From the NCBI GenBank assembly GCA_030390025.1, contig CM059426.1:184016001-184080000 (forward strand): a stretch of DNA of 64,000 nucleotides, given 5' to 3'. Origin of the DNA: Squalus acanthias (taxonomy: Eukaryota). Below are positions 3,001 through 63,870 of the stretch, one piece after another. Position numbers and translations under genes: made by a program. The notes under the pieces are model-generated. The model was not told the origin of the DNA. It did no database searches and saw nothing but the letters and a program-made list of their open reading frames with translations. Positions within the stretch are counted from its first letter, which is position 1, and each line of letters opens with the position of its first letter.

Positions 3001-3050
3001 CCACCTTATTATGAATGCTCCTCGCATTAAGAAACAAAGCCTTCAGGCTT
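6..3050 (-). pseudogene. CR1 ORF2 (endonuclease + reverse transcriptase), disrupted
   Basis: ORFs 1763-2848 and 6-1130 join in frame (...EMSGNIG-SNEREEL...) once the MITE plus one TSD (743 nt) is removed. Premature stops at ~2939-2941 (ETW>ET*) and 6-8. Start coordinate approximate. Confidence 0.9.
1077..1816 (-). mobile_element. Harbinger MITE (740 bp), internal-deletion derivative of the autonomous element at 49858-54057
   Basis: TIRs GGGGGAAAAATT / GGGGTAAAAATT (rc); TSD TAT at 1074-1076 and 1817-1819. Both arms match the reverse complement of the ends of 49858-54057 closely. Confidence 0.95.
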
Positions 3051-3222
3051 GTTTTTTTTACACTCTTAGTCCTTTTAGAATTATTATTTACTGTGGCCCT
3101 GTTTGATTTACACCCTTGATTTCTCTGCCTTCCACTTTTGCTTTTCTCCTTCCTGTCTTTTGCTTCTATCCTTACTTCCCTTTCCTCTGTTTCCCTGCAC
3201 AGGTTCCAAGCCCCCTGCCATT

Positions 3223-4152
3223 TTACTTTAAACCCTCCCCAACAGCACTAGCAAACACTCCCCCTAGGACATCAGTCCCGGTCCTGCCCAGGTGCAAACC
3301 GTCCAGTTTGTACTGGTCCCACCTCCCCCAGAACCGGTTCCAATGCCCCAGGAATTTGAATCCCTCCCCCTTGCACCATTCTTCTAGCCACGTATTCATC
3401 TGAAATATCCTTCTATTTCTACTCTGACTAGCACGTAGCACTGGCAGCAATCCTGAGATTACTACCTTTGAGGTCCTATTTTTTAATTTACCTCCTAACT
3501 CCCTATATTCAGCTTTTAGGACCTCATCCCATTTTTTACCTATATCGCTGGTACCTATATGCACCATGACAGCTGGCTGTTCACCCTCCCCCTCCAGAAT
3601 GCCCTGCAGCCGCTCTGAGACATCCTTGACCCTTGCACCAGGGAGGCAACATACCATCTTGGAGTCTCGTTTGCGGCCGTAGAAACGCCTATCTATTCCC
3701 CTTACAATAGAAACCCCTATCACTATAGCTCTCCCACTCTTTTTCCTCCCGTCCTGTGCAGCAGAACCACCCATGGTGCCAGGAAGTTGGCTACTGCTGC
3801 CTTCCCCCGATAAGCCATCTCCCCCAACAATATCCAAAGCGGTATATCTGTTTGAGAGGGGGATGGCCACAGGGGACCCCTGCACTACCTGCCTGCGCCT
3901 ACTACTCTGCCTGGTGCTCACCCATTCCCTTCCTGCCTGTGCAGCCTTTACCTGCGGTGTGACCAACTCCCTAAATGTGCTATCCACGATGTCCTCAGCA
4001 TTGTGAATGCTCCAGCATGTATCCATTCGCAGCTCCAGCGCCGCAATGCGGTCTGCCAGTAGCTGCAGCTGGATACACTTCCTGCACACATGGTCGTCAG
4101 GGACACAGGAAGTGTCTCTGATTTCCCACATAGTGCAGGAGGAGCATGCCAC
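3223..4152 (-). CDS. CR1 ORF1 protein (N-terminal zinc finger/coiled coil, C-terminal SGNH-like esterase), open 309 aa
   Basis: CxxC...CxxC (CSSC...CRKC), then IVIGxSIVR, CCLPGA, HIGT and DGLHL motifs typical of CR1 ORF1 esterase. Confidence 0.85.
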   Translation of the reverse strand: MACSSCTMWEIRDTSCVPDDHVCRKCIQLQLLADRIAALELRMDTCWSIHNAEDIVDSTFRELVTPQVKAAQAGREWVSTRQSSRRRQVVQGSPVAIPLSNRYTALDIVGGDGLSGEGSSSQLPGTMGGSAAQDGRKKSGRAIVIGVSIVRGIDRRFYGRKRDSKMVCCLPGARVKDVSERLQGILEGEGEQPAVMVHIGTSDIGKKWDEVLKAEYRELGGKLKNRTSKVVISGLLPVLRASQSRNRRIFQMNTWLEEWCKGEGFKFLGHWNRFWGRWDQYKLDGLHLGRTGTDVLGGVFASAVGEGLK

Positions 4153-4431
4153 GGGGCCGAGCTGTGCTGCCTTGACTTACCCTTTAATAATCCAAATTAA
4201 ATTAAATCAAATCAATACCACCAATTACACTACAATTAAATGATATACTCAAGGGCCCTTGTTTACTAGCACTCCCCGCTACACAACAGAGAACTTAAAA
4301 ACTATAACCACAAAAATTAAGTTTGGAAAAAAGCAAGAAAGAGAGAAATACTCACCAACCAATCACTTATCTGCTTTCTGGTGATGTCACACTTCGATTA
4401 CTTTTTTACACTCACCGGTCTGTTGTAGCTA

Positions 4432-4671: not shown

Positions 4672-4896
4672 CTTGAAAGTAATGCCATGGGATCTTTTGC
4701 ATCCACCTGAGAGAGCAGACGGGGCCTCGGTTTAACGTCTCATCTGAAAGATGGAACCTCCGACAGTGCAGCACTCCCTCGGTTCTGCATTGGAGTGTCA
4801 GCCGAGATTTTTGTGCTCAACTCTCTGGAGTGGGACTTGAACCCACAACCTTCTGACTCTAGAGGTGAGTGTGCTACCCACTGAGCCACGGCTGAC
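4672..4896 (-). mobile_element. tRNA-derived DeuSINE-like SINE, 5' half (truncated by the CR1)
   Basis: Reverse strand: A box GTGGCTCAGTGG and B box GGTTCAAGTCCC; body matches 37310-37755 and 18757-18908. Family name from recall (SacSINE1/AmnSINE-like). Confidence 0.75.
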
Positions 4897-5639
4897 ATAA
4901 AGGAGATCGAGAGAGATTACCTAATGAGCAACAAGCCTTTTCTTGTGTTCTGTGCAGGAGTATGATAGAAACAATAGAAAAGTCTTCCAAGTTATCAGAG
5001 AAGTATTGAAGTCTTGGATGGACTCTGACTTCATGGAGACTTAAGAATTGTTTAAGTGAAAAGAACAAGAAAAATGAGCTTCTTGGAAGCAGCTTTAGCA
5101 GTAGATGAGAGGTGGGAGTTTTATTTTAGGTCAGAGGAAATAATGAATGTCCACAGGTGAGGAAGGGCTAAGGGTGGAGATTTTGGAGAAACTTGTGAGA
5201 GATGTGAAGAATTTGTGTCTTTGAAGAGATGCAGTAACTAAACTTTACACTGTAAGGAGTTATGTGCACTCAGCATGCAATCTGAGTGAAGTTGATGAAT
5301 GTTGAGTGGAATCATCAGTAAACAATTGGATACAGTTTCTTTCTGGACTTTCTATCCATCTTCCATCCTGATATACAGTTACCAGCTCTCCTAAGGAAGT
5401 GGCTGTCCTTTTTGACTCAAGGTTATTCAGGATAGGAAAGGATTATGCATTAGTGGATGTGTAAAATAGAAATGGCGCCACTGCCTATAATAAATGGGGA
5501 TTTCAGCCGAAGAATGTTTGCCTCATAAAGTTGAGAAATTCCAAAGCATTACCAAGGGTGGGAGAGCTTCCTCAGGCCCTTTTGCTGCTTCTTAGCTTTC
5601 TGAGAGAGCTGATGTTTTCCTGAGTTAGTTTAGAAGCTG

Positions 5640-13574: not shown

Positions 13575-14292
13575 AATCATAGAATCTTATAGTACAGTAG
13601 GAGGCCATTCGGCCCATCGTTCCTATGTCAGCTCGTTGAAAAAGCTATCCAATTATTCCCAATCCACTGCTCTTTCCCCATAGCCCTGCAATTTTTTTAT
13701 TTTCAAGTATATATCCAATTCCCTTTTGAAAGTTACTATCGAATGTGCTTCCACCACCCTTTCAGGTAGTGCCTTTGAGATCATAACTACTCACTGCATA
13801 AAATAATTCTCCTCATCCCCCCTATGGTTATTCTGCCAAGTATCTTAAATCTGTGTCCTCTGGTTACCGACACACCCACCAGTGGTAGCACTTTCTCCTT
13901 TTTTTAAATATTCATTCACGGGACGTGGGCGTCGCTGGCAAGGCCAGCATTTATTGCCCATCCCTAATTGCCTTGAGAAGGTGGTGGTGAGCCGCATTTT
14001 TGATCCGCTGTAGTCTGTGTGGTGAAGGTACTCCCACAATGCTGTTAGCTGGGAAGTTCCAAGACTTTGACCCAATGACGATGAAGGAACAGCGATATAT
14101 TTCCAAGTCAGGATGGTGTGTGACTTGAAGGGGAATACTCTGTCAAAACCTCTCATAATTTTGAACACCTCTATTAAATTTCCCCTTACCCTTCTATGCT
14201 CCAAGGAGAACAATCCCAGCTTCTCTAGTCTCTCCACATAACTGACGTCCCTCATCCCTGGTACCATTCTAGTAAACCTCCTCTGACCCTCG
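13575..14292 (-). mobile_element. CR1 3' fragment, interrupted by a 3' fragment (~13900-14135) of the 57534-60670 LINE family
   Basis: GAATCATAGAATC tail and RRFTRMVPG...LEKLGLFSLE peptide. The insert matches 60430-60660. Confidence 0.85.
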
Positions 14293-32168: not shown

Positions 32169-32208
32169 ACACTACTACTTCCCTCGAAATGCCTCTTCCA
32201 GGTTTGGC

Positions 32209-32600
32209 TTTTTTTTATTGTGGGCATCGCTGGCAAGGCCAGCATTTATTGCCCATCCCTAATTGCCCTCGAGAAGGTGGTGGTGAGCCACCTTCTTGAA
32301 CCGCAGAGGGCAGTTAAGAGTCAACCACATTGCTGTGGGTCTGGAGTCACATATAGGCCAGAACGGGTAAGGACGGCAGATTTCCTTCCCGAAAGGACAT
32401 TAGTGAACCAGATGGGTTTTTATGATGGTAGATTCATGGTCACCATTACTGATGCTAGCTTTTTATTCCAAATTTATTTAATTAACTGAATTTAAATTCC
32501 CCAGCTGCCGTGGTGGGATTTGAACTCATGTCTCCAGATCATTAGTCCAGGGCCTCTGGATTACTAGTCGAGTAACATAACTACTATGCTACCGTGCCCC
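32209..32600 (-). mobile_element. tRNA-headed SINE whose body and tail match both ends of the LINE at 57534-60670
   Basis: Reverse strand: A box TAGCATAGTAG, B box GAGTTCAAATCC. Body matches 57534-57690; tail matches ~60565-60665. Confidence 0.85.
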
Positions 32601-33564
32601 TTCTCACATACCCAAAGTACTGCTTCCAGGTTCTGCCCCCTCTCATCTCCTCTTCATTGCCATCCATTCCTCCTTCCCTCTTTCCTTCTTTATCATCAAT
32701 TTTCCACCCTTCCTTCTCCCCTGAGCAGAAGAGATTTTGCCTGCTCCATACTGTAAGTGGGAATTCCTGTTCTCATGAGAATTCCTGTCTATTTCTGGAA
32801 ATTCTTCCATGGGCAGTAGGACTCCAAGTGTGGCACTGAGGGAAAAAGGGCCCGGTTTGCACTGATTGCATACAGACCAGGCGCCCAAAACACTGTCAGT
32901 GTGAAATAATGATTGTTGGCATGGATGAAGTTAAGGCACCTGTGGATTACTGGTTGAACTGAATCTGCTGATGCAATTTAGCTCTCTTGCACTGTCAGAT
33001 TGAGTAACTCTTCTAAGCTAGTTCCCAGATGATGTGTACTCAAATGCTCATCCGCACTCACTGTTTTAAACTAAAAATATTGGGGAAAAAATGGCAAAAG
33101 ACAGAGAAGGATGTTAATCATCATTCTTTTGAATGGTTTTATTTTCAGAAAGGTGCTATTTAAATAGCAATTTAATGACTTCTTTATCTACAAATGTTAA
33201 TTGGTTAATTGTTCACACAGAATTCATTTAAATGGGTCATGTTATTAAAAGGAGAAATCTTGTCTGTACATCTGTATTTTAGATAGATAAACAATTGCTT
33301 ATTCTTGCTCTAGCTGAAATTTTTACAACAGGGTTTTTGTTTTATGGGGTTGGGCGGGCACGGTATATTGAAATTGACCACTCCTAGCATGCTTAGTCAT
33401 TGATCAAAATTAGAGGGATATAGTGAAGAAACAGACACATTCTTTATAGGACTATTCCAAATATACTAATGGAGTGACACTGTGATGTGTAATTTAATTT
33501 TCCACCAAGAGGAGGGCACCACTAAAATAACTGATGCACCCAAACTAAAATTGTAATGTATCAT

Positions 33565-45029: not shown

Positions 45030-47020
45030 TTTTTTTAAATATTTATTTTTGGGTTGTGGGCGTCGCTGGCAAGGTCAGCATTTATTGCCCATCCCCAGTT
45101 GCCCTTGAGAAGGTGGTGGTGAGCCGCCTTCTTGAACCGCTGCAGTCCGTGTGGTGAAGGTACTCCCACAGTGCTGTTAGGGAGGGAGTTCCAGGATTTT
45201 GACCCAGCGACAATGAAGGAACGGCGATATACTTCTAAGTCAGGATGATGCGTGACTTGGAGGGGAATTTGGAGGTGGTGTTGTTCCCATGCGCCTGCTG
45301 CCCTTGTCCTTCGAGGTGGAAGAGGTCGCGGGTTTGGGAGGTGCTGCCGAAGAAGCCTTGGCGAGTTGCTGCAGTGCATCTTGTAGATGGTACACACTGC
45401 ATCCACGGTACGCCAGTGGTGGAGGGAGTGGATGTTTCAGGTGGACAATGGTAACCCCCAGGATATTGATGGTGGGAGATTCGACGATGGTAATGCCGTT
45501 GAATGTCAAGGGGTGGTGTTTAGACTCTCGCTTGTTGGAGATAGTCATTGTCTGGCATTTGTGTGGCGCGAATGTTACCTGCCACTTATCAGTCCAAGCC
45601 TGAATGTCGTCCAGGTCTTGCTGCATGCGGGCATGGACTGCTTCATTATCTGAGGAGTTGTGATTGGCACTGAACACTGTGCAGTCATCAGCGAACATCC
45701 CCACTTCTGATCTTATGATGGAGGGAAGGTCATTGATGAAGCAGCTGAAGATGGTTGGGCCTACGACACTGCCCTGAGGAACTCCTGCAGCGATGTCCTG
45801 GGGCTGTGATGATTGACCTCCAACCACCACAACCATCTTCCTTAATGCTAGGTATGACTCCAGCCAGTGGAGAGATTTCCCCCTGATTCCCATTGACTTC
45901 GGTTTTACTAGGGCTCCTTGATGCACTGTCGACGACACCTTCCATCACTTTGCTGATGATTGAGAGTAGACTGATGGGGCAGTAATTGCCAGATTTTTGT
46001 GGACAGGACATACCTGGGCAGTTTTCCACATTGTCGGATAGCTGCCAGTGTTATAGCTGTACTGGAACAGCTTGGCTAGAGGCGCGGCTAGTTCTGGAGC
46101 ACAAGTCTTCAGCACGACAACCGGGATGTTGTTAGATGATTGTGGGATCGCTTATCTCTGTCTATAGCACTTTGCTTCTGCTTTTTAGCATGCATGTAGT
46201 CCTGTGTTGCAGCTTCCCGAGGTTGGCGCCTCATTTTTAGGTACGCCTGGTGCTGCTCCTGGCATGCTCTTCTACACTTCTTATTGAACCAGGGTTGGTC
46301 CCCTGGCTTGATGGCAATGGTAGAGTGAGGGATATGCTGGGCCATGAGGTTACAGATTGTGGTGGAATACAATTCTTCTGCTGCTGATGGCCCATAGCGC
46401 CTCATGGATGCCCAGTTTTGAGCTGCTAGATCTGTTCTGAATCTATCCCATTTAGCACGGTGGTTGTGCCACACAACACGATGGAGGGTGTCCTCAGTGT
46501 GAAGACGGGACTTCGTCTCCACAATGACTGTGCGGTGGTCACTGCTACTAATGCTGTCATGGACTGATGCATCTGTGACAGGTAGATTGCTGAGGACGAG
46601 GTCAAGTATGTTTTTCCCTCGTGTTGGTTCTTTCACCACTTGTCACAGGCCCAGACTGGCAGCTATGTCCTTCAGGACTCGGCCAACTCGATCAGTAGTG
46701 GTGCTACCGAGCCACTCTTGGTGATGGACATTGAAGTCCCCACCCAGAGTACATTCTGTGTCCTTGCTGCTCTCAGTGCTTCTTCCAAGTGGTATTCAAC
46801 ATGGAGGAGAGCTGATTCATCAGCTGAGGGAGGGCGGTAGGTGGCAATCAGCAGGAGGTTTCCTTGCCCATGCTTGACTTGAAGCCATGAGACATCATGG
46901 CGTCCGGAGGCAATGTTGAGGACTCCCAGGGCCACTCCTTCCCGACTGTATACCACTGTGCCGCCACCCCTGGTAGGTCTGTCCTGCTGGTGGGACAGGA
47001 CATACCCAGGGATGGTGATA
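45030..47020 (-). mobile_element. Internally deleted copy of the 57534-60670 LINE family
   Basis: EN and RT peptides (VPQGSVVGP, MFADD) near-identical to the 58453-59958 ORF; same 3' tail. Confidence 0.9.
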
Positions 47021-47066
47021 GATATGTTCAAATGAAGATGGTGTGTGACTTCCTCTGATTTATATT

Positions 47067-49837: not shown

Positions 49838-50368
49838 GATTTCAAATAAAACTGTTGGGGGTAAAAATTCACTTGGTTGCGCCTCCCGTTAGCGCCTTAA
49901 GAGGGCGCTAATGGGGCGTTAAGCCGCTAACGCCCGGGCGCAGCGCTGTTTGCGCCGCTCGAGAACTTAACTTGAGATCGTGCGGCGGCGCTAAAACTTA
50001 CCGCTGCGACCACCTGCGCGCGCAGATTGTGACGTCATTCCATGGTGCAACGCCCTTGGGGCGCTCCGGAGCGGAAATTGAGTGACGCCCCCTGCCTTAC
50101 CGCCTGGCGCTTCCAACGACCGGAAGACTGGAACGTTATCAATCGGTGTGGGGCTGGGGGGGGCGCTATTTAAAGGGGGCCTCTTCCTGTCTTTTTCTGT
50201 GGTCGACATTTATGCACCACTCGTTCTGAGAGAGAGAGAGAGATTCGGAGAGAGAGAGAGAGAGACTTCTACATTGACTCAACGCTTTGTGAGGTAGTTT
50301 TGCCTATTCATCCTAACTTTGTTGCTACTTTAGTTGCTGTACCTCATTACTTTTCTGGCAAAGAGAAT

Positions 50369-51529
50369 ATGGGGGCTGCAATGATTGGGGGCGTCGTCCT
50401 GCTCCAGCTGAATCGGAGGATACAGAGACGCAGACAGAGAGTGGCAATGATGGCCAGACGGAGGAGGGCCATCAGGCGCATGTACAGGAGAGCTTACCCT
50501 CCCAGGGTATATCGTGAACAGCTCTCCTACATCCATATGTCCGAGGAGCTGTGTTTGCGGAGGCTGCGATTCAGCAAGGAGGTGGTCACTGAGCTCTGCC
50601 ACCTGCTGCAGCCAGATCTGCAGCCTCAGCTGAGGTCCAGGACGTCTCTGTCGGTGGCAGTGAAGGTCACAGTGGCTTTGAACTTCTATGCCACTGGCTC
50701 ATTCCAAGCTGCTGTTGGGGACCTCGCCAATATCTCCCAGTTTGCGGTGCATCGCTGCATCCGGCAGGTCACCAATGCCCTCTTCAGAAGGAGACGAGAC
50801 TTCATCTCTTTCCCTATGACCCCAGACAAGCAGCGTGACCGTGCTCTGGGCTTTGCGAGGGTAGCGGGCTTCCCCATGGTGCAGGGCGCCATTGACTGCA
50901 CGCATGTGGCTTTGCGTGCTCCGCGAGAGAATGCAGAGGAATTCAGGAACAGAAAGGGGTTCCATTCCTTGAATGTGCAGTTGGTCTGTGACCACAGACA
51001 GGTGATACTCGCTGTCAATGCCCACTATCCGGGCAGCTGCCACGATGCTTTCATCCTGCGCCAGACTACTGTGGCAGAAGTTTTCGAGGCACCGCATCAG
51101 CCAGTTGGTTGGCTTCTGGGGGACAAGGGGTACGCATTGAGCACCTGGCTGATGACACCGCTCCGTACGCCAAACACCCCTGCTGAGCTGCGGTACAATG
51201 AAAGCCATCAAGCAACCAGGAACATTATTGAGCGCACAATCGGCGTGCTGAAACAACGGTTCCGCTGTCTGGACCATTCCGGAGGAGCCCTGCAGTACTC
51301 GCCTGAGCAAGTTTCGAACTTCGTAGTCGTGTGCTGCATGTTGCACAACATGGCAATCCTCAGGACCCAGCCAATGCCACCAGGCCTTGTAGCACCACCA
51401 GAGGAGGAGGAGGAAGAGGAGGAAGAGGACGAGGACGATGATCATCAGCAGCACCAAGGCAGGAGGGCGGCCCACAATGGTCAAACTGCAAGGGCCGTCC
51501 GTCAACGACTAATAGCAAGCCGCTTCTAG
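50369..51529 (+). CDS. Harbinger DDE transposase (HARBI1-like), 386 aa, single exon
   Basis: First ATG at 50369. Motifs GAIDCTH, NRKGFHSLNVQLVCD, PGSCHDAFIL, LGDKGY, RNIIERTIGVLKQRFRCL, CCMLHN; acidic tail. Confidence 0.95.
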   Translation: MGAAMIGGVVLLQLNRRIQRRRQRVAMMARRRRAIRRMYRRAYPPRVYREQLSYIHMSEELCLRRLRFSKEVVTELCHLLQPDLQPQLRSRTSLSVAVKVTVALNFYATGSFQAAVGDLANISQFAVHRCIRQVTNALFRRRRDFISFPMTPDKQRDRALGFARVAGFPMVQGAIDCTHVALRAPRENAEEFRNRKGFHSLNVQLVCDHRQVILAVNAHYPGSCHDAFILRQTTVAEVFEAPHQPVGWLLGDKGYALSTWLMTPLRTPNTPAELRYNESHQATRNIIERTIGVLKQRFRCLDHSGGALQYSPEQVSNFVVVCCMLHNMAILRTQPMPPGLVAPPEEEEEEEEEDEDDDHQQHQGRRAAHNGQTARAVRQRLIASRF

Positions 51530-51823
51530 GGCCCCTGCCATTGCTACAAACACTAATCAACCCAGCACGCAACCCCTAAGCCGGCCAAGGCACCAATAAT
51601 TCCAACCACCAGCCATGTATATTTTGAATACAGAAACTTATTTATTTTACAAACTCTGTGTGTGTCAATTCCTCATGACAAACTCATAGAAATAAACACA
51701 AAAAAACAGTCAATAACATAACTGGTTCTCACAACCTGGAGATAATGTCCAAAACACTAAACAAAAGTTGGACCATGAACCTCGACCTTTAATAAAAAAA
51801 TGACCAGCATTTTGTCACACCTC

Positions 51824-53700
51824 CTACTTTTTGCCCTTCGAGGGTGATCTCCTTCCCTTGCGCACTTCCCCCCTTCTAACCCTACTGCTCCTCCGTAATG
51901 GGACCTCAGTGGCTGCAGCAAGGCTGGTGGAAGGCTGCTGCTCGTCAGACCCTGACACTGCAGATGCCCCTGAAGGACGGCCTCGACCACTTCTGGGCCT
52001 GGAGGGCCCGGCTGCAGACTGCACCAACTCTGCATGGGCGGCAGCAGTCTGTCCTACAGGCGGTGGCAAGTGCAGTGGAGAAGTGACAGTGTTGGCAGCA
52101 GGAATGCTGTCATCGTGAGAGAGGACAGCAACTCCCTGCTCGCCCGACACACTGGCACTCCCACGGGGCAGCACTTCAGCATCCGGAGCAATCTGCCGGA
52201 GAACAGATTGCTGGCCTGCTGCGGCGCGGTGACAGCCCCGGGGACATGTGCACGAACCATCGAGGTTGGCAGCAGTCTGTGCTCGCGTGGCCTCCATCTG
52301 AGTCTGTATGAGAGCAGTCAGAGGTGGGATCACGGCAGCCAGTGACTGAATTGCAGCACTAAGCGTTAGTGTGGCATCCGCCTGTGCTACAGCGAAGTGC
52401 TCCACACTCCTTGCCAGTGACTCAATGCAATCGGGCACCCTTCCCACTGCACCCATGAGCTCAGTGTGCATGCCCACCGCCTGGGTGTTCATTTCTGCAA
52501 TCAGCCGCTCCTCCTCTGCGTCCATTGCAGTAGGAGTGTCTGGCATACTCTCCCTCTGGGGAGAAGGCCCCCGTTCTTCCCTACCCCCCCCATGGCGTTG
52601 CTGCAGCCCGCTGGGTCCTGGAGCTTCACCATCATCAGCCCCTTCCCCCCTGCTCCCCTCCGGGGAAGGCGTGTTCCCAGTGTGGGCATGGGCTTCCTCG
52701 GGAGAGGGTGGCACTGATGCTCCGGCTTCCTCTTCCTCCTCAGCTGCAGCATCACTCCCAGTGGCAGCTTCAGGGCCCGTCTCCTCAGCTGGTGAATCAC
52801 CATCTGAAAGCAGGGAGGTACAAGAGTGGCTTTAGCGTGAGGACAGGGTGGCAGTAAGGGAGGAATAAGTGCAGCGAGTTAGCAAGTTGGATTGAAAGTG
52901 TCAAAGGCTGGTGTTGTGAGGGACAAGTGGAAGGACAGAGGACAAAAAGGTGATGACCTTACCATTGCTGTCCAGAACGGGGTCGGCGTCTCCAGTGGCG
53001 ACGGGACCGATCACCCGGCTTGTCACAATCCTGTGGACGCACTCCTCCAGATCGCTGAGGGGTTGCAGCTGAAGCCGCCCTCCACCTGTCCGTTGCTGCT
53101 GTCTCCTATTATGAGCCAACTTAGCCTGCAAGAAAAAGGACAGCATCTGAGTAAATATGCAGCCATGGTCTTGCCTGATGTGCCTCCCATAGGTGAATAG
53201 CCCTTACAATATACAGCCATGGTCTTGCCTGATGTGCCTCCCATAGGTGAATAGCCCTTACAATATACAGCCATGGTCTTGCCTGATGTGCCTCCCATAG
53301 GTGAATAGCCCTTACTGTATGCAAAGTGTGGAATGTGTGTGTGTGTTTGATGAAAGGGCCATAGGTGTTGGATGAGTGTTGTGCATTGGGGTTTTAAGAC
53401 CCTCTGGCCATAGAGTGAGGTTGAGATGGAGGGATGGAGAGGTATTGAGAAAAAGCCACTCACCCTGACGACCCGAGTGAGGTCGTTGAACTTTTTGCGG
53501 CATTGAGTATGGGTCCTGGGCACCATGCTCCTGGAGGAGACGCTCTGAGCCACCTCCCTCCACACTCTTCTGAACTCGCGTGGCAAAGGCCTCCTGCCAC
53601 TCTCAGGGAACAGCATACATCGTCTGCGCTCCACTGCGTCAACCAGAGCATCCAAGGCCCGCTCGGTGAAGCGATGAGCGCGTTCTCTCACCCTCTCCAT
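51824..53700 (-). CDS. Harbinger Myb/SANT-like DNA-binding protein, 3 exons (53700-53464, 53125-52963, 52803-51824), ~459 aa
   Basis: Exon 1 MERVRERAHRFTERALDALV..WREVAQSV..RTHTQCRKKFNDL. GT-AG junctions (gtgagt/cttgcag phase 0; gtaagg/ctttcag phase 1) join all three open exons in frame. Confidence 0.85.
53160..53315. repeat. 54-bp tandem repeat (~2.9 copies) in Myb intron 1
   Basis: CAGCCATGGTCTTGCCTGATGTGCCTCCCATAGGTGAATAGCCCTTACAATATA starts at 53160, 53214 and 53268. Confidence 0.95.
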
Positions 53701-56219
53701 ACTTGGCAGCAAAATGGATTACAGGTCTCTCCAGGCCGAGATTCAAGGCTGCAATGAGCAGGGTGTGGCTGGGGAGCAAGTGGCCCCCCCCGCTTTAAGA
53801 AGTGTCCGGCGCCAGTGTGTCTGTGTTCCCTCGCTAACTGGCAGCAGCTGCGCTGCGCTCGCGCGCTGAGTTAGCGCCTCACTCCTTGGCCTTTGCGCCT
53901 TAAGAGAGGTGTGCAGCGCCTGCTTTAGCGCTCCACTCACCTCCCGGGGCGGTAAAAGTGAAGTTTCCTGTCAGTGCCGATAATTAGCGCCAGGCGCTAA
54001 TATTTGCGTCCGGACGATATTTGCGCCCCAAATGGGGCGCGACCTAATTTCTACCCCTTGGACTATAACCTGGTGTTGTGCGACTTCTCACATTTGTCCA
54101 CCCCAGTCCAACACCGGCATCTCCACATCATCGAGATTATTACAGCATTGGTAATTCCCAAAACAACTGTCTTTTGCTAAGTGGAAGTTCATTTCTGTGG
54201 ATTTACACCCTTCAAAGTTGCTGGTTTCCTGTTTTCTTGGCGTTGTGCCAGTCTTCCAAAATAAAGAAAATAAGTAGTTTATAAAGTTGCCATGACTATT
54301 TGGCCCACAATGTCTCCACCAACTCTTTGATGAAGTGATCCAAAACTAATCCCATTGCCTTGCTCCCTCTTCTCTCCCCTCCCCCACCTTGGCCCTGTAA
54401 CTCCTTTGCTACAAATGCTCATCTACTCTTCTCTTACAAGCTGCATTGTCACTACCTCGACTACTCAAAATATAGCAAATGTATTGGCCAGGAATCAAAC
54501 CCAGGTCTCACATTGTTGAATTCTAATGCTTTCTCCAAGGAGCTCCTCGTAAATGTGTTTTGTTGCTAAAGAACCCTCTTGTGAAATACACATGCACTGC
54601 ACTGTAATACAGTGTTCTCAATCTGCAGCCTAATACTTACCATTCTAGATAGTCAAGTGCACTTCATCAAACAAAAGCACAAAAAAACGCTGTCGGAGAG
54701 GTTTTACAGCCCAAGTGCCAGAACGTAGAATAACCATCATACTTAATACTCTGTGCATTACTCTAGCATCAGTGCAAAGTGGTTTTGCTTCACACCTATG
54801 CTGCAGAATTTGTATAACTGCAGCTTAAATCTGTCATTAGGGCCCAATCTAACGTTGGAGCAAAACTGAGCTTTGAGCTTATACTAATATAAGTTTCGTG
54901 TCAATGTGAACCAAAAGCTACTTTGTGCCAATGCTCAACTTTTATTGTCGGTCAACCCCAAGTAACACAGTAGCATTCCGTATCTGTGTGCTGTTGTTCA
55001 AATGTTAATTACAGCACCATTATACATTTACCAGTGCTTGTAATCTAATAATGCACATTGCTTGAGCGGGAAGTTGATTGTAATTTTTAAGCCATTTCTT
55101 ACAGTTGCACTGTTTGTGGAATTACAAAGGCACCATAGCACGATGTCATTTGGTCATGAAACTCTGTGCATTGGCCTCAGGGATTAGGGTTTCTGGCTTT
55201 CGCTGTTTATTTTGGACATTTTCTGGTTGAAGTAAAAGTTGAATTTTTCAGTGCTTCTCATTTTTATTTTGTAAAAAAAAAATGTAGAATCCAAGCAAAA
55301 TCTTGGCACAAATTCTAAAGATTGGTTTGACAACACCTCTGCTTCAGCTGATAGGAGTTTTCACTGAAGAGAGAATTTAGCAGCAGTCTATCAGCAGGGA
55401 AAATAAGAGTGTGGGCGTGGGATCCAAAGCTGACCTTGTTATATCAAGAAAGAGCTAGTTCATGTCGTAAGCAATTAAAAAACAATTTAGGTTTTCAGTC
55501 GGTGCTGTGGCCAACGACCACCAATTACACTTTCTTTTTAAAATTGGGGGAGAAGAGCAAGGGCTTTATCGGGTTTCATTGGTTTAACCCAACAATTGGA
55601 AAGCCTGGTTGTAATAAAGGATCTACCAACTTAAAACATTTGAAAAGTATTTTGACAAGTTAGTGGTTTACTTTTAAAAGGAAATCTTTGATTTTTAAAC
55701 CAAGCTACTTAAAATACATAAAGGGCAAAGCAGATGGAAAGCAGCAGTGATTAACATACAAATAGAGTTGTACTGATGCAGCTGATATCAGAGAATCAAA
55801 GAATTTACAGCACAGAAGAATGCCATTTGACCCATCTTACATGTGTCAGGGTTGTCTACTCTAATCTTACTTCCATTTCAAATGCTTTCTTATTTAAAAG
55901 AGGACTGAATTATACTGTCTATGCTTCAATTGCCGCTTATGATAAAGCGTTCCATGTTCCAATATCCCTCTGAGGAAAACATTTCTTCTGACTTGCCTTT
56001 GTTCTTCTGGTGATGGTAAGAACATAAGAAATAGGAGCAGGATTAGGCCATTCAGTCCTCCGAGTCTGCTCCGCCATTAAATAAAATCATGGCTGACCTT
56101 CGACCTCAACTCCACCTTCTTGCAAAATCCCCATATCCCTTGGTTCCCATAGTATCCAAAAATCTATCGATCTCTGTCTTGAATATACTCGGGTTATAGT
56201 CCAACAGTTTTATTTGAAA

Positions 56220-56257: not shown

Positions 56258-57533
56258 AGTGAAGAAATACAAATGGGCACAGCATATATAGACAGAGAAC
56301 AATGCCTGTGCAGAGAACAATGCCAGACAACTACAGTTAATCTTTCTGACTGCCCTTTATCACACCTCGGCAGAGAGACAATCACGGCAATCAAATCCAA
56401 CCAGGTCAGTCAGGAAGACATTACATCAAAGACAATAGCAAAATACAACAAAGACAATGAGGTGGGGTCACAGGGGGTCCAATGTGGCAGAGGCTGCAGT
56501 CTGTATGGAAAACCAAAAACTTTAAACTTTTTACTTTTTTTACTGGACGACTGAGCATCCATAGCCCTCTGGGGTAGAGAATTCCAAAGATTCACCACCC
56601 TCTGAGTGAAGAAATTTCTCCTCATCTCAGTCCTAAATGGCCGACCCCTTATTCTGAGACTGTGACTCCTAGTTCTAAACTCCCCAGCCAGGGGAAACAT
56701 CCTCCCTGCATCTACCTTGTCAAGTCCTGAAGAATTTTATACATTTCAATGAGATTACCTCTCATTCTTCTAAACTCTAAGGAATATAGGCCTAGTCTAC
56801 TCAATCTCTCCTCACAGGACAATCCCCCCATCCCAGGAATCAGTCTAGTGAATCGTTGTTGCACTTCCTCTAAGGCAAGTATATCCTTCCTTAGGTAAGG
56901 AGACCAAAACTGTACACAATACTCCAGGTGTGGTCTCACCAAGGCCCTATATAATTGCAGTACGACTTCTTTACTCTTACACTCCAATCCTTTTGTAATA
57001 AATATTAACACACCATTTGCTTTCCTAATTGCTTGCTGTACCTGAATATTAACTTTCTGTGATTCATGTACAAGGACACCCAGGTCCCTCTGAATACCAA
57101 CATTTCCCAATCTCTCACCATTTAAAAAATATCCTGTTTTTCTATTTTTCCGACCAAAGTGGATTTCTCCACGTTATATTCCATCTGCCACCTTCTTGTC
57201 CACTCACTTATCCTGCCTTAATCCCTTTGCAGCCTCTCTGCATCCTTCTCACAACTTACTTTCCACCTAGCTATCATCAGAAAACTTGGATACATTACAC
57301 TTGGTTCCCTTTTCTAAGTCATTGATATAGTTTGTAAATAGCTGAGGCTCAAGCACAGATTATTGCGCTACCCCATTAGTTATAGCCTGCTAACCCAAAA
57401 ATGACCCATTTATTCCTACTCTCTGTATTCTGTCCGTTAACTAACCCCCAATCCCATGATCCCTAGATTTGTGTAATAACCTCTTGTGTGGCACCATCTC
57501 GAATGCCTTCTGAAAATCCAAGTACACTACATC

Positions 57534-60500
57534 AGTATCCGTCATGGTAACCATGAAACTATCGGATTGTTGTAAAAACCCATCTGGTTCACTAATGTCC
57601 TTTAGGGAAGGAAATCTGCTGTCCTTACCTGGTCTGGCCTATATGTGACTCCAGACCAAAGCAATGTGGTTGACTCTTAATTGCCCTCTGAAATGGCCTA
57701 GCAAGCCACTCAGTTGTAACAAACCGTTACAAAACAAAAGAATAATAAAAATGAAACCGGACGGACCACCCGGCATCGACCTCGGCATCGGCTACAGACA
57801 TGGCAACAGCACACCCAGCCCAGTCAACCCTGTAAAGTCCTCCTCACCAACATCTGGGGACTTGTGCCAAAATTGGGAGAGCTGTCCCACAGACTAGTCA
57901 AGCAACAGTCATACTCACAGAATCATACCTTTCAGCCAATGTCCCAAACTCCTCCATCACTAATCCTGGGTATGTCCTGTCCCACCGGCAGGACAGACCC
58001 ACCAGGGGTGGCGGCACAGTGGTATACAATCGGGAAGGAGTGGCCCTGGGAGTCCTCAATATTGACTCCGGACCCCATGAAGTCTCATGGTTCAGGTCAA
58101 GCATGGGCAAGGAAACCTCCTGCTGATTACCACCTACTGCCCTCCCTCAGCTGATGAATCAGTACTCCGCCATGTTGAACACCACTTGGAAGAAGCACTG
58201 AGAGTAGCAAGGACGCAGAATGTACTCTGGGTGGGGGACTTCAATGTCCATCACCAAGAGTGGCTCGGTAGCACCACTACTGACCGAGCTAGCCGAGTCC
58301 TGAAGGACATAGCTGCCAGTCTGGGCCTGCGACAGGTGGTGAGAGAAGCAACATGAGGGAAAAACCTACGTGACCTCGTCCTCAGCAATCTACCTGTCAC
58401 AGATGAATCAGTCCATGACAGAATTGATAGCAGTGACCACCGCACATTCCTTGTGGAGACGAAGACCCGTCTTCACACTGAGGACACCCTCCATCGTGTT
58501 GTGTGGCACTACCACCGTGCTAAATGGGATAGATTCAGAACAGATCTAGCAGCTCAAAACTGGGCATCCATGAGGTGCTATGGGCCATCAGCAGCAGCAG
58601 AATTGTACTCCACCACAATCTGTAACCTCATGGTCTGGCATATCCCTCACTCTACCATTACCACCAAGCCAGGGGACCAACCCTGGTTCAATAAGGAGTG
58701 TAGAAGAGCATGCCAGGAGCAGCACCAGGCGTACCTAAAAATGAGGCGCCAACCTGGGGAAGCTGCAACACAGGACAACATTCATGCTAAAAAGTGGAAG
58801 CAGCATGCTATAGACAGGGCTAAGCGATGCCACAATCAACGGATCAGATCAAAGCTCTGCAGTCCTGCCACATCCAGTCCTGAATGGTGGTGGACCATTA
58901 AACAACTAACGGGAGGAGGAGGCTCCATGAATATCCCCATCCTCAATGATGGTGGAGCCCAGCACATGAGTGCAAAAGACAAGGCTGAAGCGTTTGCAAC
59001 CATCTTCAGCCAGAAGTGCCGAGTGGATGATCCATATCAGCCTCCTCCTGAGGTCCCCACCATCACAGAAGCCAGTCTTCAGCCAATTCGATTCACTCCA
59101 CGTGATATCAAGAAACGGCTGAGCACACTGGATACAGCAAAGGCTATGGGCCCTGACAACATCCCAGCTATCATGCTGAAGACTTGTGCTCCAGAACTAG
59201 CTGCGCCTCTCGTCAAGCTGTTCCAGTACAGCTACAACACTGGCATCTATCCGACAATGTGGAAAACTGCCCAGGTGTGTCCTGTCCACAAAAAGCAGGA
59301 CAAATCCAATCTGGCCAATTACCGTCCCATCAGTCTTCTCTCAATCATCAGCAAAGTGATGGAAGGAGTCATCGACAGTGCTCTCAAGCGGCACTTACTC
59401 ACCAATAACCTGCTCACTGATGCTCAGTTTGGGTTCCGCCAAGACCACTCGGCTGCCGACCTCATTACAGCCTTGGTCCAAACATGGACAAAGGAGCTGA
59501 GTTCCAGCTGTGAGGTGAGAGTGACTGCCCTTGACATCAAGGCAGCATTTGACCGAGTGTGGCACGAAGGAGCCCTCGTAAAACTGAAGTCAATGGGAAT
59601 CGGGGGGAACATTCTCCACTGGCTGGAGTCATACCTAGCACAAAGGAGGATGGTTGTGGTGATTGAAGGTCAATCATCACAGCCCCAGGACATTGCTGCA
59701 GGAGTTCCTCAGGGCAGTGTCCTGGGCCCAACCATCTTCAGCTGCTTCATCAATTACCTTCCCTCCAACATAAGGTCAGAAATGGGGATGTTCGCTGATG
59801 ACTGCACAGTGTTCAGTGCCATTCACAACTCCTCAGCTAATGAAGCAGTCCATGCCCGCATCCAACAAGACCTGGATGACGTTCAGGCTTGGGCTGACAA
59901 GTGGCAGGTAACATTCGCACCACAGAAGTGCCAGGCAATGACTATCTCCAACAAGTGAGAGTCTAAGCACCTCCCCTTGACATTCAATGGCATTACCATC
60001 AACATCCTGGGGGTCACCATTGACCAGAAACTTAACTGGACCAGCCACATAAATACTGTGGCAACAAGAGCAGGTCAGAGGCTAGGTATTCTGCGGTGAG
60101 TGTCTCACCTCCTGACTCCCCAAAGCCTTTCTACCATCTACAAGGCACAAGTAAGGAGTGTGATGGAATACTCTCCACTTGCCTGGATGAGTGCAGCTCC
60201 AGCAACACTAAGAAGCTTGACACCATCCAGGACAAAGCAACTCGTTTGATTGGCACCCTCTCTACCACCTTAAACATCCACTCTGTCCACCACTGGCGTA
60301 CCGTGGCTGCAGTGTGTACCATCTACAAGATGCACTGCAGCAACTCGCCAAGGCTTCTTCGGCAGCACCTCCCGAACCCGCGACCTCTTCCACCTAGGAC
60401 AAGGGCAGCAGATGCATGGGAACAACACCACCTCCAAGTTCCCCTCCAAGTCACGCATCATCCTGACTTAGAAGTATATCACCGATCCTTCATTGTCGCT

Positions 60501-60670
60501 GGGTCAAAATCCTGGAACTCCTTCCCTAACAGCACTGTGGGAGTACCTTCACCACACGGACTGCAGCGGTTCAAGAAAGCGGCTCACCACCACCTTCTCA
60601 AGGGCAATTAGGGATGGGCAATAAATGCTGGCTTTGCCAGCAATGCCCACATCCCATAAACAAATAAAAA
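57534..60670 (+). mobile_element. CR1/L2-group LINE with a single EN+RT ORF (disrupted), SINE-like 5' leader and no visible ORF1
   Basis: TSD ACATC at 57529-57533 and 60671-60675. EN starts ~57830 (VLLTNIWGLVPK..GDFN..SDH). RT in the 501-aa ORF 58453-59958 (AMGPD, NYRPISLLS, LDIKAAFD, VPQGSVLGP, MFADD). Confidence 0.9.
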
Positions 60671-62209
60671 ACATCCACCCTGCTAGTTACAACCTCAAAA
60701 AAACGATTTTTCAAACACGATTTCCATTTCAGAAATCCATGTTGACTCTGCTAGTCATATTATGACTTTCTAAATGTCTTGTTACCACCTCCCTACTTAT
60801 ATATTTTAGCATTTTCCCTACTATTGATGTCAGGCTAATTGATCTATAGTTCCCTGTTTTCTCTCTCCCTCCTTTCTTGAATAGTGGGGTTACATTTGAT
60901 ACCTTCTAATCCGCGAGGACTGTTCTAGAATCTAGGGAATTCTTGAAAGCCAAAGCCAACGCATCCACTATCTCTGTAACCACCTCTTTTAAAACCTCAA
61001 GATGTAGGCCATCAGGTCATGGGGATTTTTGGCTTTTAGTCCCATTAACTTCTCCATTGCTATTTCTTTAAGTTCCTCATTCTCACTAGACCCTTGGTTC
61101 CCCGCTATTGCCAGAATGTTTTTGTGCCCTCTTCCGTGAAAACAGATACAAAGATTTTGTTTTAATGACTCTGCCATTTCCTTATTCCCCATTATAACTT
61201 CTCCTGTCTCAGCCTGTAAGGGACCCACGTTTACTTTCACAATCTCTTCCTTTTTACATACCGACAGAAACTTTACAATCTGTTTTATGTCTCTTGCTAG
61301 TTTAACTCATTTTCTATTTTCTCTCTCTTTATTAAGTACTTGGTCATCCTTTGCTGAATTCTAAAATCCTCTCATTCCTCAGGCTTACTACTCTTTTTGG
61401 CAACATTATAAGCCTCTTCCTTTAATCTAATGTTTTCTTTAACTTCTTTTGTTAGCTACGGTTATACCATTTTTCCTGTGGGTTTTTTATTCCTTAAGGG
61501 AATGTATATTCATTGCGAATTATTAATTATTTCTTTAAATGTTTGCCATTATTTATGTACCGTCATATCTTTTAATCTACTTTCCCAATCTACCTTCGCC
61601 AACTTGCCCCTCATATCTACATAGTTTGCTTTATTCAGATTTAAGACCCTAGTTTCAGACTTAACTAAATCACTCTCAATCTCAATATAAAATTATATGA
61701 TATTATGATCACTCTTCCCAGAGGCTCCTTTACCACAAGGCTATTAGTTAACCCTGTCTCATTGCACAATACTAGATCTAAAATAGCCGGTTCCCTAATT
61801 GGTTCCTCGACATACTGATCTAGAAAACTATCTCAAATACATTCCATGAACTTGTCCTCCACACTATTACTGCAAATTTGGTTGCCCAGTCTATATGAGA
61901 ATTGAATACCCCATGATTACTGTATTACCCTTGTTACATGCACCTCTAATTTGCTGATTTATATGGTGGTCGGCACTACAACTACCATTAGGGGACCTAT
62001 AAACTACTCCCACCAGTGTTTTCTGCCCTTTAATCATAAGTCCATAAGTCTGTGTCCCATTGCTACTGATTTTCGAACTAAAACCTTTCATAATTTTGAA
62101 ATCTTCTTTTTAACCTATTTTCTGGTGAAAAAAGCTCCAATTTTTAAGCCTTTTTTCATGATTAAAACTTTTCATTTCTAGCTTCATTTGCATCTACCTT
62201 AGCTGTATC

Positions 62210-62560
62210 ACAAGAGATTTACTGATGAGGAAGGCCATTTTTGCCATCTGGAAGCACTCTAATATCTCCCAATTACAGGATCAATTATTGCTTAAATGAT
62301 TTCAGGGTTTTTGCCAACACTATATCCATATATCGATTCCATGGATTGATGCGTTTTAGTGTAAAGAAGGATCTTCTGCTATTAGTCCTAAATTTCCCTT
62401 TTACTATTTTGCACTCGTGTCCTCTTCTCCTACTCTTGCAATTTGCTTAAAATTAATATTCAACATTTATCTTTTCGATACCTTTAACTGTCTTGGATAC
62501 TTCTGTAAGATTACCTCTTAAAAGTCTCCTATCCAGTCCAAGTTTCTCCAGTGTTTCCTC
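62210..62560 (-). mobile_element. Decayed CR1 3' end
   Basis: GGAAGGCCATT.. tail and LEKLGL..RR..RGNL remnants on the reverse strand. Confidence 0.5.
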
Positions 62561-62689
62561 ATGACTCAGACGTTTGACACTGGGAATCAGCCTCATGGCT
62601 CTTCCCTGCTCTGCCTCCAGCACTTGAATGTTGGGTGGGTAACTGCCTCAACAACCATAAGAAGAAGGACAAGGAGAAGTAGCACTTAT

Positions 62690-63870
62690 TTACAAATCCT
62701 GGTGGCAGATCTCCACCCCAGGGAGAGAGCCCAGGGGTTTTCCGATGAAGCTTTGGAGGCATTGGTTTTAGCGATGGAGAGAAGGCGGGCGATCCTGTAC
62801 CCGTCAACTGGCAGGAGGCCCTCGCCACAAGTCTGCCAGACTATGTGGAGGGAGGTGGCACACCACGTCACGGGCAGCACTGTGGTCCCCAGGTCCCACA
62901 CCCAGTGCAGGAGAAAGTTTAATGAGCTCACACGGGTGGTCAGGGTGAGTGAAGGCTTCAACAAATGCTACATCCCACTATCTGTACCACAAGCTTCACA
63001 CCCCCAGCACTCACCCACCAACAATCTCTACATAGCAACACTCACACCCACATCTCACACCTTGCACACAATGACAGCTATTCAACTATGGAAGGCACAA
63101 GGGTCATTAATTATTAGAATTCATGTAATATGTGTGATATGTTTATAGATAAATTTATTAATGGTCTTTGGAATATTTTGTGGCCTCTCGCATTTCACCT
63201 TTGCGCCCAGGAGGACGCTTTGATATAGCGTGAGACAGGGATTGTATGATGGGAATGTGGTGAGAAACGGGGATCTGGGGTTTCATTCATTCGAATCGCA
63301 GTCTGATGAGCCGGTCACGGACAGCCCGTCTGGAAGGCCGATTGTCTCGCTGCCTCCTCCCTCCCTCCTGTTCCCCCTCCTCCTGCTCATCCTCTTCCTC
63401 CTTGTCCTCCTCCTCCTCGTCCTCCTCTGACTTGTCCTCCTCCTGAGGTGGTCCTGCAATCCCTGCTGGCAAGGGCTGCGCCCTCATGATGGCCAAGTTG
63501 TGGAGCATGCAGCAGACCACCACGAAATGGGACACCCGCTCTGGCGAGTACTGGAGGACTGCTCCCGAGCGGTCAAGACAGCAGAACCTTTGGCGATGGT
63601 CTGCTCGATGATATTCCTGGTGGCAGCGTAGCTCTCATTATATGAGTGCTGGGCACGAGTGTTGGGGTTGCGGAGGGGAGTCATGAGCCAGGTGGAGAGC
63701 AGATAGCCCTTGTCTCCCAGCAGCCACCCTCGAGCTTAATGTGGTGGCAGGAAGAGTGCTGGCACACCGGTCTGGCACAGGATGAAGGCATTGTGGCTGC
63801 TGCCAGGATAGCGGGCATTGACATTGAGGAATTTGCTGTCTGTGGTCACACACCAACTGTACATTAAGTG
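62690..63870. pseudogene. Second, deleted and decayed Harbinger: Myb exon 1 (+, ~62710-62944) and transposase C-terminal half (-, 63287-63870)
   Basis: GFSDEALEALV..WREVAHHV..RSHTQCRRKFNELTRVVR|gtgagt; [33 protein letters not shown]; same convergent layout as 49858-54057. Confidence 0.85.

Follow-up and report, generated by a model that had tools for sequence, protein, structure and literature searches.

The question raised by a 64,000-nt stretch of the genome of the shark Squalus acanthias (assembly GCA_030390025.1, contig CM059426.1, positions 184,016,001 to 184,080,000; hereafter the window) is why a long interspersed element (LINE) at 57534–60670 begins with the sequence that forms the central part of a transfer RNA (tRNA)-headed short interspersed element (SINE) at 32209–32600. 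LINEs are taught as units of RNA polymerase II (Pol II), and SINEs as RNA polymerase III (Pol III) units that borrow a LINE tail. Small RNAs without coding function are the normal products of Pol III. The answer favoured here, with more confidence than doubt but with a good measure of both, is that the LINE is a dead, 5'-truncated copy of a Zenon element that has one open reading frame (ORF), that the intact element would be transcribed by Pol III from a tRNA-like head, and that the 392-nt SINE would be its internal deletion. The parts of the two elements, including the untranslated region (UTR), an upstream ORF (uORF) and a possible target-site duplication (TSD), are as follows.

57534–60670, plus strand: Zenon (CR1-group) LINE copy, dead, 5'-truncated by ~144 nt with respect to the headed family consensus.
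57534–57690, plus strand: 5' UTR block common to the LINE and the SINE body, 137/158 identical, E 1e-49.
57691–57833, plus strand: leader section unique to the LINE; an ATG at 57751 begins a 48-codon uORF that is out of the endonuclease frame.
57834–60611, plus strand: single ORF for an APE endonuclease and a reverse transcriptase (RT), broken.
60566–60670, plus strand: 3' end of the LINE (part shared with the SINE, 60566–60651), with a stem-loop, AATAAA at 60620 and an A-rich tail.
57529–57533, plus strand: ACATC, left copy of a possible 5-bp TSD, identical with the final bases of the interrupted CR1 fragment.
60671–60675, plus strand: ACATC, right-hand copy of the possible TSD; its status is ambiguous, with target bases missing beside it.
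32209–32600, minus strand: SINE-like element of 392 nt, composed of a head (~144 nt), the LINE 5' UTR block and the LINE 3' end, with the junction at 32304.
32506–32598, minus strand: tRNA-Thr(AGT)-like head with a long extra arm, the A box from 32591 and the B box from 32525, called at a relaxed threshold only.

Judged by its sequence, the LINE is an ORF1-less copy of a CR1-group Zenon element of the shark type. An endonuclease beginning only ~300 nt into the element, leaving no room for ORF1, had been proposed in the initial annotation, and this was borne out: the first position of the endonuclease motif, 57834, is 300 nt from the 5' end, and Pfam detected an APE endonuclease (E 2e-10) and RVT_1 (E 5e-38), with no family in frame ahead of these domains. 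A protein search with the frame upstream of the endonuclease gave zero matches. The missing ORF1 is ordinary, because Zenon of the five elasmobranchs described always lacks ORF1 and has a poly(A) tail (PMC13343379). The name Zenon rests on an exact match of the leader to consensus sequences placed as Zenon in that paper, and the leader of the window copy is nearly identical, by eye, to that of SquAca_Zenon-1. The characters of the family were all found, namely a single APE-RT ORF without ORF1, a poly(A) tail, an RT in the Zenon clade and a full length of ~3.3–3.5 kb. The window copy, the head and an 18-nt gap near 59995, seen relative to a second copy in the window, sum to 3299 nt (3137 + 144 + 18); moth Zenon measures 3.06–3.74 kb (PMC6740152).

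The shark Heptranchias perlo supplies the proteins nearest to the LINE (82% and 73%). Single APE-RT proteins, 935–1054 amino acids (aa) long and ~40% identical, are the nearest relatives that are intact. In RT trees, which were made by quick methods and included no named Zenon protein, the LINE RT grouped with beetle and butterfly matches (FastTree 0.995; quick tree 99), apart from the canonical CR1s of the window, to which it is 33% identical. The PDB matches to the LINE were distant L1 and R2 RTs only. A Heptranchias protein predicted as an aldo-keto reductase (P0124) includes ~250 aa of Zenon LINE and is probably a gene-model error. In both the whale shark and the white shark, ~6.8% of the genome is masked as Zenon (195 Mb and 290 Mb, respectively; PMC13343379), a figure that probably includes short derivatives.

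The window copy is dead, with three frameshifts in the ORF (near 57905, at 58090–58117 and at 60216–60243) and three premature stops (58354, 59956 and 60097). It interrupts a CR1 fragment, and a paralogous CR1 at 19310–19083 reveals that target bases were lost at the site. A single ACATC TSD had been proposed; ACATC does stand on both sides of the insert, but its status as a TSD is uncertain given the bases missing in comparison with the paralogue, and both a 5-bp TSD with an adjacent 18-bp deletion and a 15-bp target deletion without a TSD fit the sequence. Under either interpretation the 5' boundary of the insert is at 57534 and the copy is without a tRNA head. By comparison with the headed consensus sequences described below, the copy is 5'-truncated by ~144 nt. 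The shared 3' end folds as a stem-loop (z −2.47; 3 of 200 shuffles equally good) and is, on this model, the likely recognition site of the RT. The leader folds no better than its shuffles (z −0.37). Rfam found nothing in the whole window, and the head and leader gave chance-level matches only, with no ribozyme or internal ribosome entry site family.

The claim that the first ~160 nt of the LINE equal the central body of the SINE was confirmed by alignment of 57534–57690 with 32456–32304 of the minus strand (137/158; 87%). The SINE also ends in the 3' tail of this LINE, as had been noted, 60566–60651 corresponding to 32304–32219 (81/86; 94%; E 2e-33). What had to be reversed was the view of the leader as a SINE body, since this leader belongs to the LINE as its 5' UTR and is not borrowed. 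Inside the SINE the 5' and 3' blocks adjoin, with one base in common. With the head counted as part of the LINE, the element comprises LINE positions 1–297 followed by the last ~86 nt of the LINE and an A tail. The whole SINE body is explained by the Zenon leader, and the SINE consists of LINE 5' and 3' ends only, as BLAST showed for its body and tail and a comparison by eye with the consensus sequences for its head. As in SINE2 elements, there is a tRNA-derived head with A and B boxes (relaxed threshold) and the tail of a partner LINE; a V domain is presumably absent. One copy of the SINE is present in the window. It is surrounded by an exact 10-bp direct repeat (32195–32204 and 32623–32632), lying 22 nt past the head and a few bases past the A tail, which is possibly a TSD with extra 5' bases.

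The A and B boxes of the SINE head are 66 nt apart, one of only two such pairs in the window. ARAGORN at the 90% threshold called a tRNA-Thr(AGT) at 32598–32506, one of four such calls in the window; no call was obtained with 300 shuffled heads. The idea of the long extra arm as a duplicated anticodon arm was rejected, the window copy giving no significant result (30 of 300 shuffles).

Evidence that the head belongs to the LINE came from published consensus sequences. The comparison covered the first 400 nt of each of the 1,003 supplement sequences of PMC13343379, among which the head and the junction were compared with seven elasmobranch Zenon consensus sequences from five species (Carcharodon, Hypanus, Rhincodon, Scyliorhinus and three from Squalus). 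All seven start with the head of the window SINE, followed by the shared block and then by the LINE, and in each the A box begins, by eye, at position 6–11. The SINE head and SquAca_Zenon-1 show, by eye, ~11 differences and one gap over 144 nt. The body-to-LINE junction word of the window is exact in six of the seven; the SINE-type junction word occurs in none of them. Six B-box 10-mers produced six matches among the 1,003 5' ends, every one in a shark Zenon. The head is absent from the Zenon consensus sequences of hagfish and coelacanth, three in all. The tRNA head is thereby very probably a part of the full-length LINE, as far as consensus sequences represent it. The initial annotation had set LINEs that carry the head beside a SINE formed by deletion, and both are supported together: since all seven consensus sequences carry the head, the SINE would arise from a headed LINE simply by internal deletion, which is its likely origin on this comparison. 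Neither a different 5' UTR, nor an ORF1, nor a one-off junction was encountered in these sequences.

The last result bears on the proposal that the window LINE is a one-off chimera, produced by a template switch onto SINE RNA or by insertion into a SINE. The leader is reached by just one of the window's three LINE copies, as a chimera would have it, but the proposal is hardly credible, being refuted by the junction word common to six of the seven consensus sequences unless these are wrong at the junction. In addition, the flanks of the copy are CR1 and not SINE, and an unrelated database peptide (P0252) is continuous from the endonuclease region through the leader.

A more serious objection is that the head of the consensus sequences could be an assembly artefact. 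The LINE would then start in the leader, and the SINE would be of the Kojima type, with a tRNA head template-switched onto a bipartite Zenon derivative. The consensus sequences were obtained by iterative extension (a BLAST-extend-extract procedure with an extra round of 5' extension; PMC13343379), headed LINE copies in the window number zero, and the addition of heads by such a route is documented for RTE and Vingi (PMC5786205). This origin is nevertheless unlikely. The means of the three longest insertions in the seven families are 3299, 3299, 3322, 3240, 4347, 3220 and 2870 nt, and the consensus lengths, in the same order, are 3288, 3293, 3314, 3096, 3244, 3283 and 2886 nt (PMC13343379); all seven means fall within 63 nt of the consensus length or above it. 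In three families the means exceed the full consensus by 6 to 11 nt, and since headless copies would be ~140 nt shorter, the head seems to be included in the longest copies. The seeds of the consensus sequences were RT domains, the B-box words occur in no other CR1-group consensus among the 1,003, and the terminator depletion described below spans the ORF of real genomic copies.

Other sources are silent on the head. Every reading frame from the head into LINE-only sequence is interrupted by stops, hence a LINE with the head could not be recognised in protein databases. The leader word is absent from the text of the papers searched. The available main text of PMC13343379 contains no mention of tRNA, promoter or polymerase, and that of its preprint none of tRNA.

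Internal deletion appears to have taken place in the family more than once. A search with the antisense frame of the SINE gave 14 database protein matches, six of which join tail-derived to 5'-derived peptide. One breakpoint, near 60597|57714, is shared by P0241, P0253 and P0254, and another, at 60601–60604|57687–57693, by P0245, P0249 and P0250; P0246, with an overlapping junction, is an ambiguous seventh case. These peptides suggest repeated deletion, as with Persaeus from the moth Zenon, an element that repeatedly yields deletion derivatives (PMC6740152). Two further Zenon copies are present in the window:

45030–47022, minus strand: second copy, 5' end lost within the endonuclease, with internal deletions; AATAAA (45086), then TATTT (45041) and A7.
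13899–14135, minus strand: third copy, 3' end only; AATAAA (13955), then TATTT (13910) and A7.

All three LINE copies have A-rich ends. The several internal deletions of the second copy fit a deletion-prone family.

A Pol III unit of 3.3 kb must be free of T-run terminators, and T runs were counted in the LINE. The minimal terminators are TTTT or TVTTT (PMC8466645). Over its 3,137 nt the main copy is free of TTTT (mononucleotide-shuffle P 0.011), and neither TTTT nor TVTTT occurs inside any of the four Zenon family members of the window. For the main copy, counts of the two words as low were reached by 7 of 400 dinucleotide and none of 400 mononucleotide shuffles, and its antisense strand contains 20 such words. 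On each strand of the window the longest stretch free of them is a Zenon copy. At least three are present in each of seven CR1 segments, in the Harbinger gene of the window and in all of 80 related LINE segments; TTTT was lacking in none of the 80, though most are richer in T. The TT dinucleotide is depleted in the Zenon copies (observed/expected 0.71 and 0.63) as compared with the CR1 segments (1.01–1.19) and lies below all 80 relatives, and TTT is found 8 times against 27 expected in one copy and not at all against 16 expected in another.

The relatives are 80 LINE-like loci from a scan of bacterial and archaeal genome records, two of which are of the Zenon clade. They comprise L001 (positions 40–2893), an intact GC-rich Zenon-clade ORF with an A tail on a contig filed under a bacterial metagenome-assembled genome (MAG) and evidently animal DNA, and L002–L080, animal-type LINE ORFs in many MAG records, mostly of invertebrate symbionts, which points to host DNA in the assemblies. 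Neither an A and B box pair nor a relaxed tRNA call was found in the 49 relatives with enough upstream DNA, the 5' end of L001 being missing, and no DNA similarity of the SINE, leader or tail to the 80 loci was seen.

At the 3' end, AATAAA is present in all four family members, and TATTT followed by A7 in two of them, the second and third copies, where TATTT lies 45 nt after AATAAA. The T's of TATTT are missing at the ends of the main copy and the SINE.

These data may be placed in a single scheme, which carries our qualified preference stated at the outset. The layout comprises the head with its A and B boxes, a leader of ~300 nt, one endonuclease-RT frame, a 3' stem-loop and an A tail, the head standing in front of the LINE leader in the consensus sequences. 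TFIIIC and Pol III would start at the head and read through 3.3 kb owing to a sense strand without T-run terminators. Pol III would stop at the terminal TATTT, and the RNA would be polyadenylated by way of AATAAA, like that of mammalian T+ SINEs. The uncapped RNA would be translated without an in-frame AUG, by a non-AUG start, by reinitiation or by a frameshift from the uORF. The protein would bind the 3' stem-loop and carry out target-primed reverse transcription, often with 5' truncation as in the window copy, in keeping with established LINE biology. Finally, a ready-made SINE would result from any deletion sparing both the 3' stem-loop and the promoter head, and this may have occurred more than once.

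The translation step is suggested by the arrangement of start codons. The endonuclease frame, from the stop ahead of 57720 as far as the motif at 57834, has no ATG, and the 48-codon uORF (ATG at 57751) overlaps it out of frame; the same ATG arrangement was seen, by eye, in the examined 5' parts of three Zenon consensus sequences. Predicted Met starts are present in the relatives P0001, P0002 and P0006. An uncapped LINE RNA would be well served by a start that is non-AUG or cap-independent, and the uncapped RNA of R2 elements is translated.

In its widest form the proposal is that shark and ray Zenon is an autonomous LINE organised as one Pol III unit, with a promoter derived from tRNA-Thr, 3.3 kb purged of terminators, polyadenylation of the T+ type and cap-independent non-AUG translation, and with deletions born as SINEs. 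This we put forward tentatively, with doubt slightly outweighing belief. As to historical order, either the LINE gained a tRNA or it captured the 5' end of a SINE.

A number of observations weigh against the scheme or parts of it. As regards the head, no single genomic copy with both head and ORF is among the LINE copies of the window, where the head is found on none of three; the head could have been lent to the consensus sequences by SINE copies; the B box of the Hypanus consensus is imperfect; and the 26-nt leader word, sought in bacterial and archaeal genomes as a sign of stray shark contigs, had no match. The head is also degenerate: ARAGORN at its default threshold and an Rfam search of the head gave no tRNA, and its minimum-energy fold is no cloverleaf (z −0.30). 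As regards the derivatives, the 14 peptide matches are unnamed gene predictions without DNA, and none shows the junction of the window SINE. As regards the terminators, TTTT alone gave P 0.18 with dinucleotide shuffles and P 0.12 with synonymous codons, one 2.4-kb CR1 stretch is likewise free of TTTT, and the TTTT/TVTTT set was adopted after the TTTT-only test. The nearest GC-rich relative, L001, has one TTTT in 2,854 nt and five TTTT/TVTTT words over its whole ORF; avoidance of T before T is stronger in it (odds ratio 0.13) than in the window copy (0.39), and is not significant in the second copy. A terminator-like word precedes 16 of the 272 A5 runs in the window, and in view of this background and of the shared descent of the copies, the TATTT-A7 ends are modest support only. 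Translation of uncapped RNA is poor. Zenon elements in general have poly(A) tails (PMC13343379), and Pol III products are described as short (PMC10886601).

Another conceivable role of the head is that of an RNA-processing signal at which RNase P would cut a host co-transcript at the 5' edge of the element, much as hepatitis delta virus-like ribozymes set the 5' end of R2 and RTE RNAs. The same 5' end would be expected, a cloverleaf can be drawn at the relaxed threshold, and ribozyme processing of LINE 5' ends is known. Such a role is very improbable, however, as the acceptor stem is weakly paired in the relaxed ARAGORN model of the window SINE head, the minimum-energy fold is not a cloverleaf, and the missing T runs would be left unexplained.

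It is also conceivable that the head is truly on the LINE but that Pol II makes the coding RNA, starting in the leader or reading through from a host gene, the Pol III boxes serving only the short derivatives or a second template RNA without coding function. Published descriptions have LINEs as units of Pol II and the products of Pol III as short (PMC10886601, PMC5786205), AATAAA and an A tail are compatible with Pol II, and the GC-rich relative L001 is also poor in T runs. Moreover, insect Zenon functions with a UTR of ~312 nt (PMC1925062), and its derivative has no tRNA homology (PMC6740152). We consider Pol II transcription rather unlikely, yet the least unlikely of the alternatives, as the consensus 5' ends lie 5–10 nt ahead of the A box in all seven cases, the boxes are kept across five species, and terminator-like words number 0 in the sense strand versus 20 in the antisense strand. 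Transcription of the intact element by Pol III from the head is the reading retained.

Further elements of the window were noted as well. A different tRNA-headed SINE is represented by its 5' part at ~4700–4897 (minus strand), with an A box at 4888 and a B box at 4842. Its relaxed ARAGORN call is the best of the window, it continues into a tandem repeat, and it looks to be of the Deu type (SacSINE1-like). A canonical CR1 at 1482–4301 (minus strand) has an esterase-type ORF1 (3223–4176) and an endonuclease, and its sense strand contains no TTTT over 2.8 kb and three TVTTT. A Harbinger-like DNA transposon at 50174–53718 has an open DDE_Tnp_4 frame of 451 aa on the plus strand facing a Myb/SANT gene on the minus strand, and what seems to be a second, decayed Harbinger-like relative lies at ~62522–63634.

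A LINE that owns a tRNA promoter blurs the division between LINEs with Pol II and SINEs with Pol III. If the scheme is true, Zenon would provide a natural protein-coding Pol III transcript of several kilobases, in which translation of uncapped RNA and purging of terminators from coding sequence become testable, and a second, one-step route to SINEs that reverses the usual order of SINE origin. The donor of the SINE body is of the CR1 group, where only RTE and Vingi are reported in the available part of PMC5786205. If Pol III is not used, the outcome would be a useful but modest annotation result.

In the literature searched, as far as its text was available, no earlier tRNA-headed or Pol III-driven LINE and no report of this SINE was found beyond a sentence on RTE-1_DAn (PMC5786205); Repbase, Dfam, SINEBase, the Zenodo deposit and Ogiwara 1999 were outside this search and may already name the element or head. 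The combination of a head, a terminator-free ORF and a T+-like end was likewise not found there, and the family, the deletion route and tRNA-like sequence in a LINE each have precedent. Elasmobranch Zenon (PMC13343379) agrees with the window element in family, exact junction word, lack of ORF1, A tail and length (~3.3 kb), and differs in that the available text of that paper describes neither the head nor the SINE-like derivatives nor the terminator pattern.

Among cartilaginous fishes, SacSINE1 and CmiSINE (PMC5499810) and HE1 (PMC3747384) are also tRNA-headed SINEs; compared by description only, the first two combine a Deu or CORE body with an L2 tail, and HE1 is a V-SINE paired with HER1. 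The mammalian T+ SINEs B2, Dip and Ves (PMC8466645) resemble the shark element at the 3' end, where AATAAA and TATTT, a minimal terminator that daughter copies have often lost, stand before an A tail, a layout complete in two of the four window copies against the background of 16 in 272 A5 runs. They are, however, short, non-coding, mammalian and mobilised by L1, whereas the shark element is 3.3 kb long and coding, with polyadenylation only predicted.

The derivatives of lepidopteran Zenon, the SIDE elements of the Persaeus type (PMC6740152), are short 5' plus 3' deletion products of 263–386 bp, several of them independent. The window SINE resembles them in having LINE ends only but not in the lack of tRNA homology and of a Pol III promoter, as it has both boxes and is SINE-like. 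The bipartite SINEs Bov-tA, SINE2_Gav and CoeSINE4 (PMC5786205) are likewise composed of a tRNA head, a LINE 5' UTR and a LINE 3' end; their donors are only RTE or Vingi and their head was added after the deletion, whereas here the donor is of the CR1 group and the head was apparently on the LINE. Accordingly classed by the definition of Kojima 2018, the shark SINE falls outside the bipartite SINEs, with its head in all seven partner sequences, insofar as consensus sequences are representative, and a CR1-group Zenon as donor. The nearest precedent is RTE-1_DAn with its relatives (PMC5786205), a LINE of another clade that contains tRNA-like sequence matching the heads of SINE2 elements.

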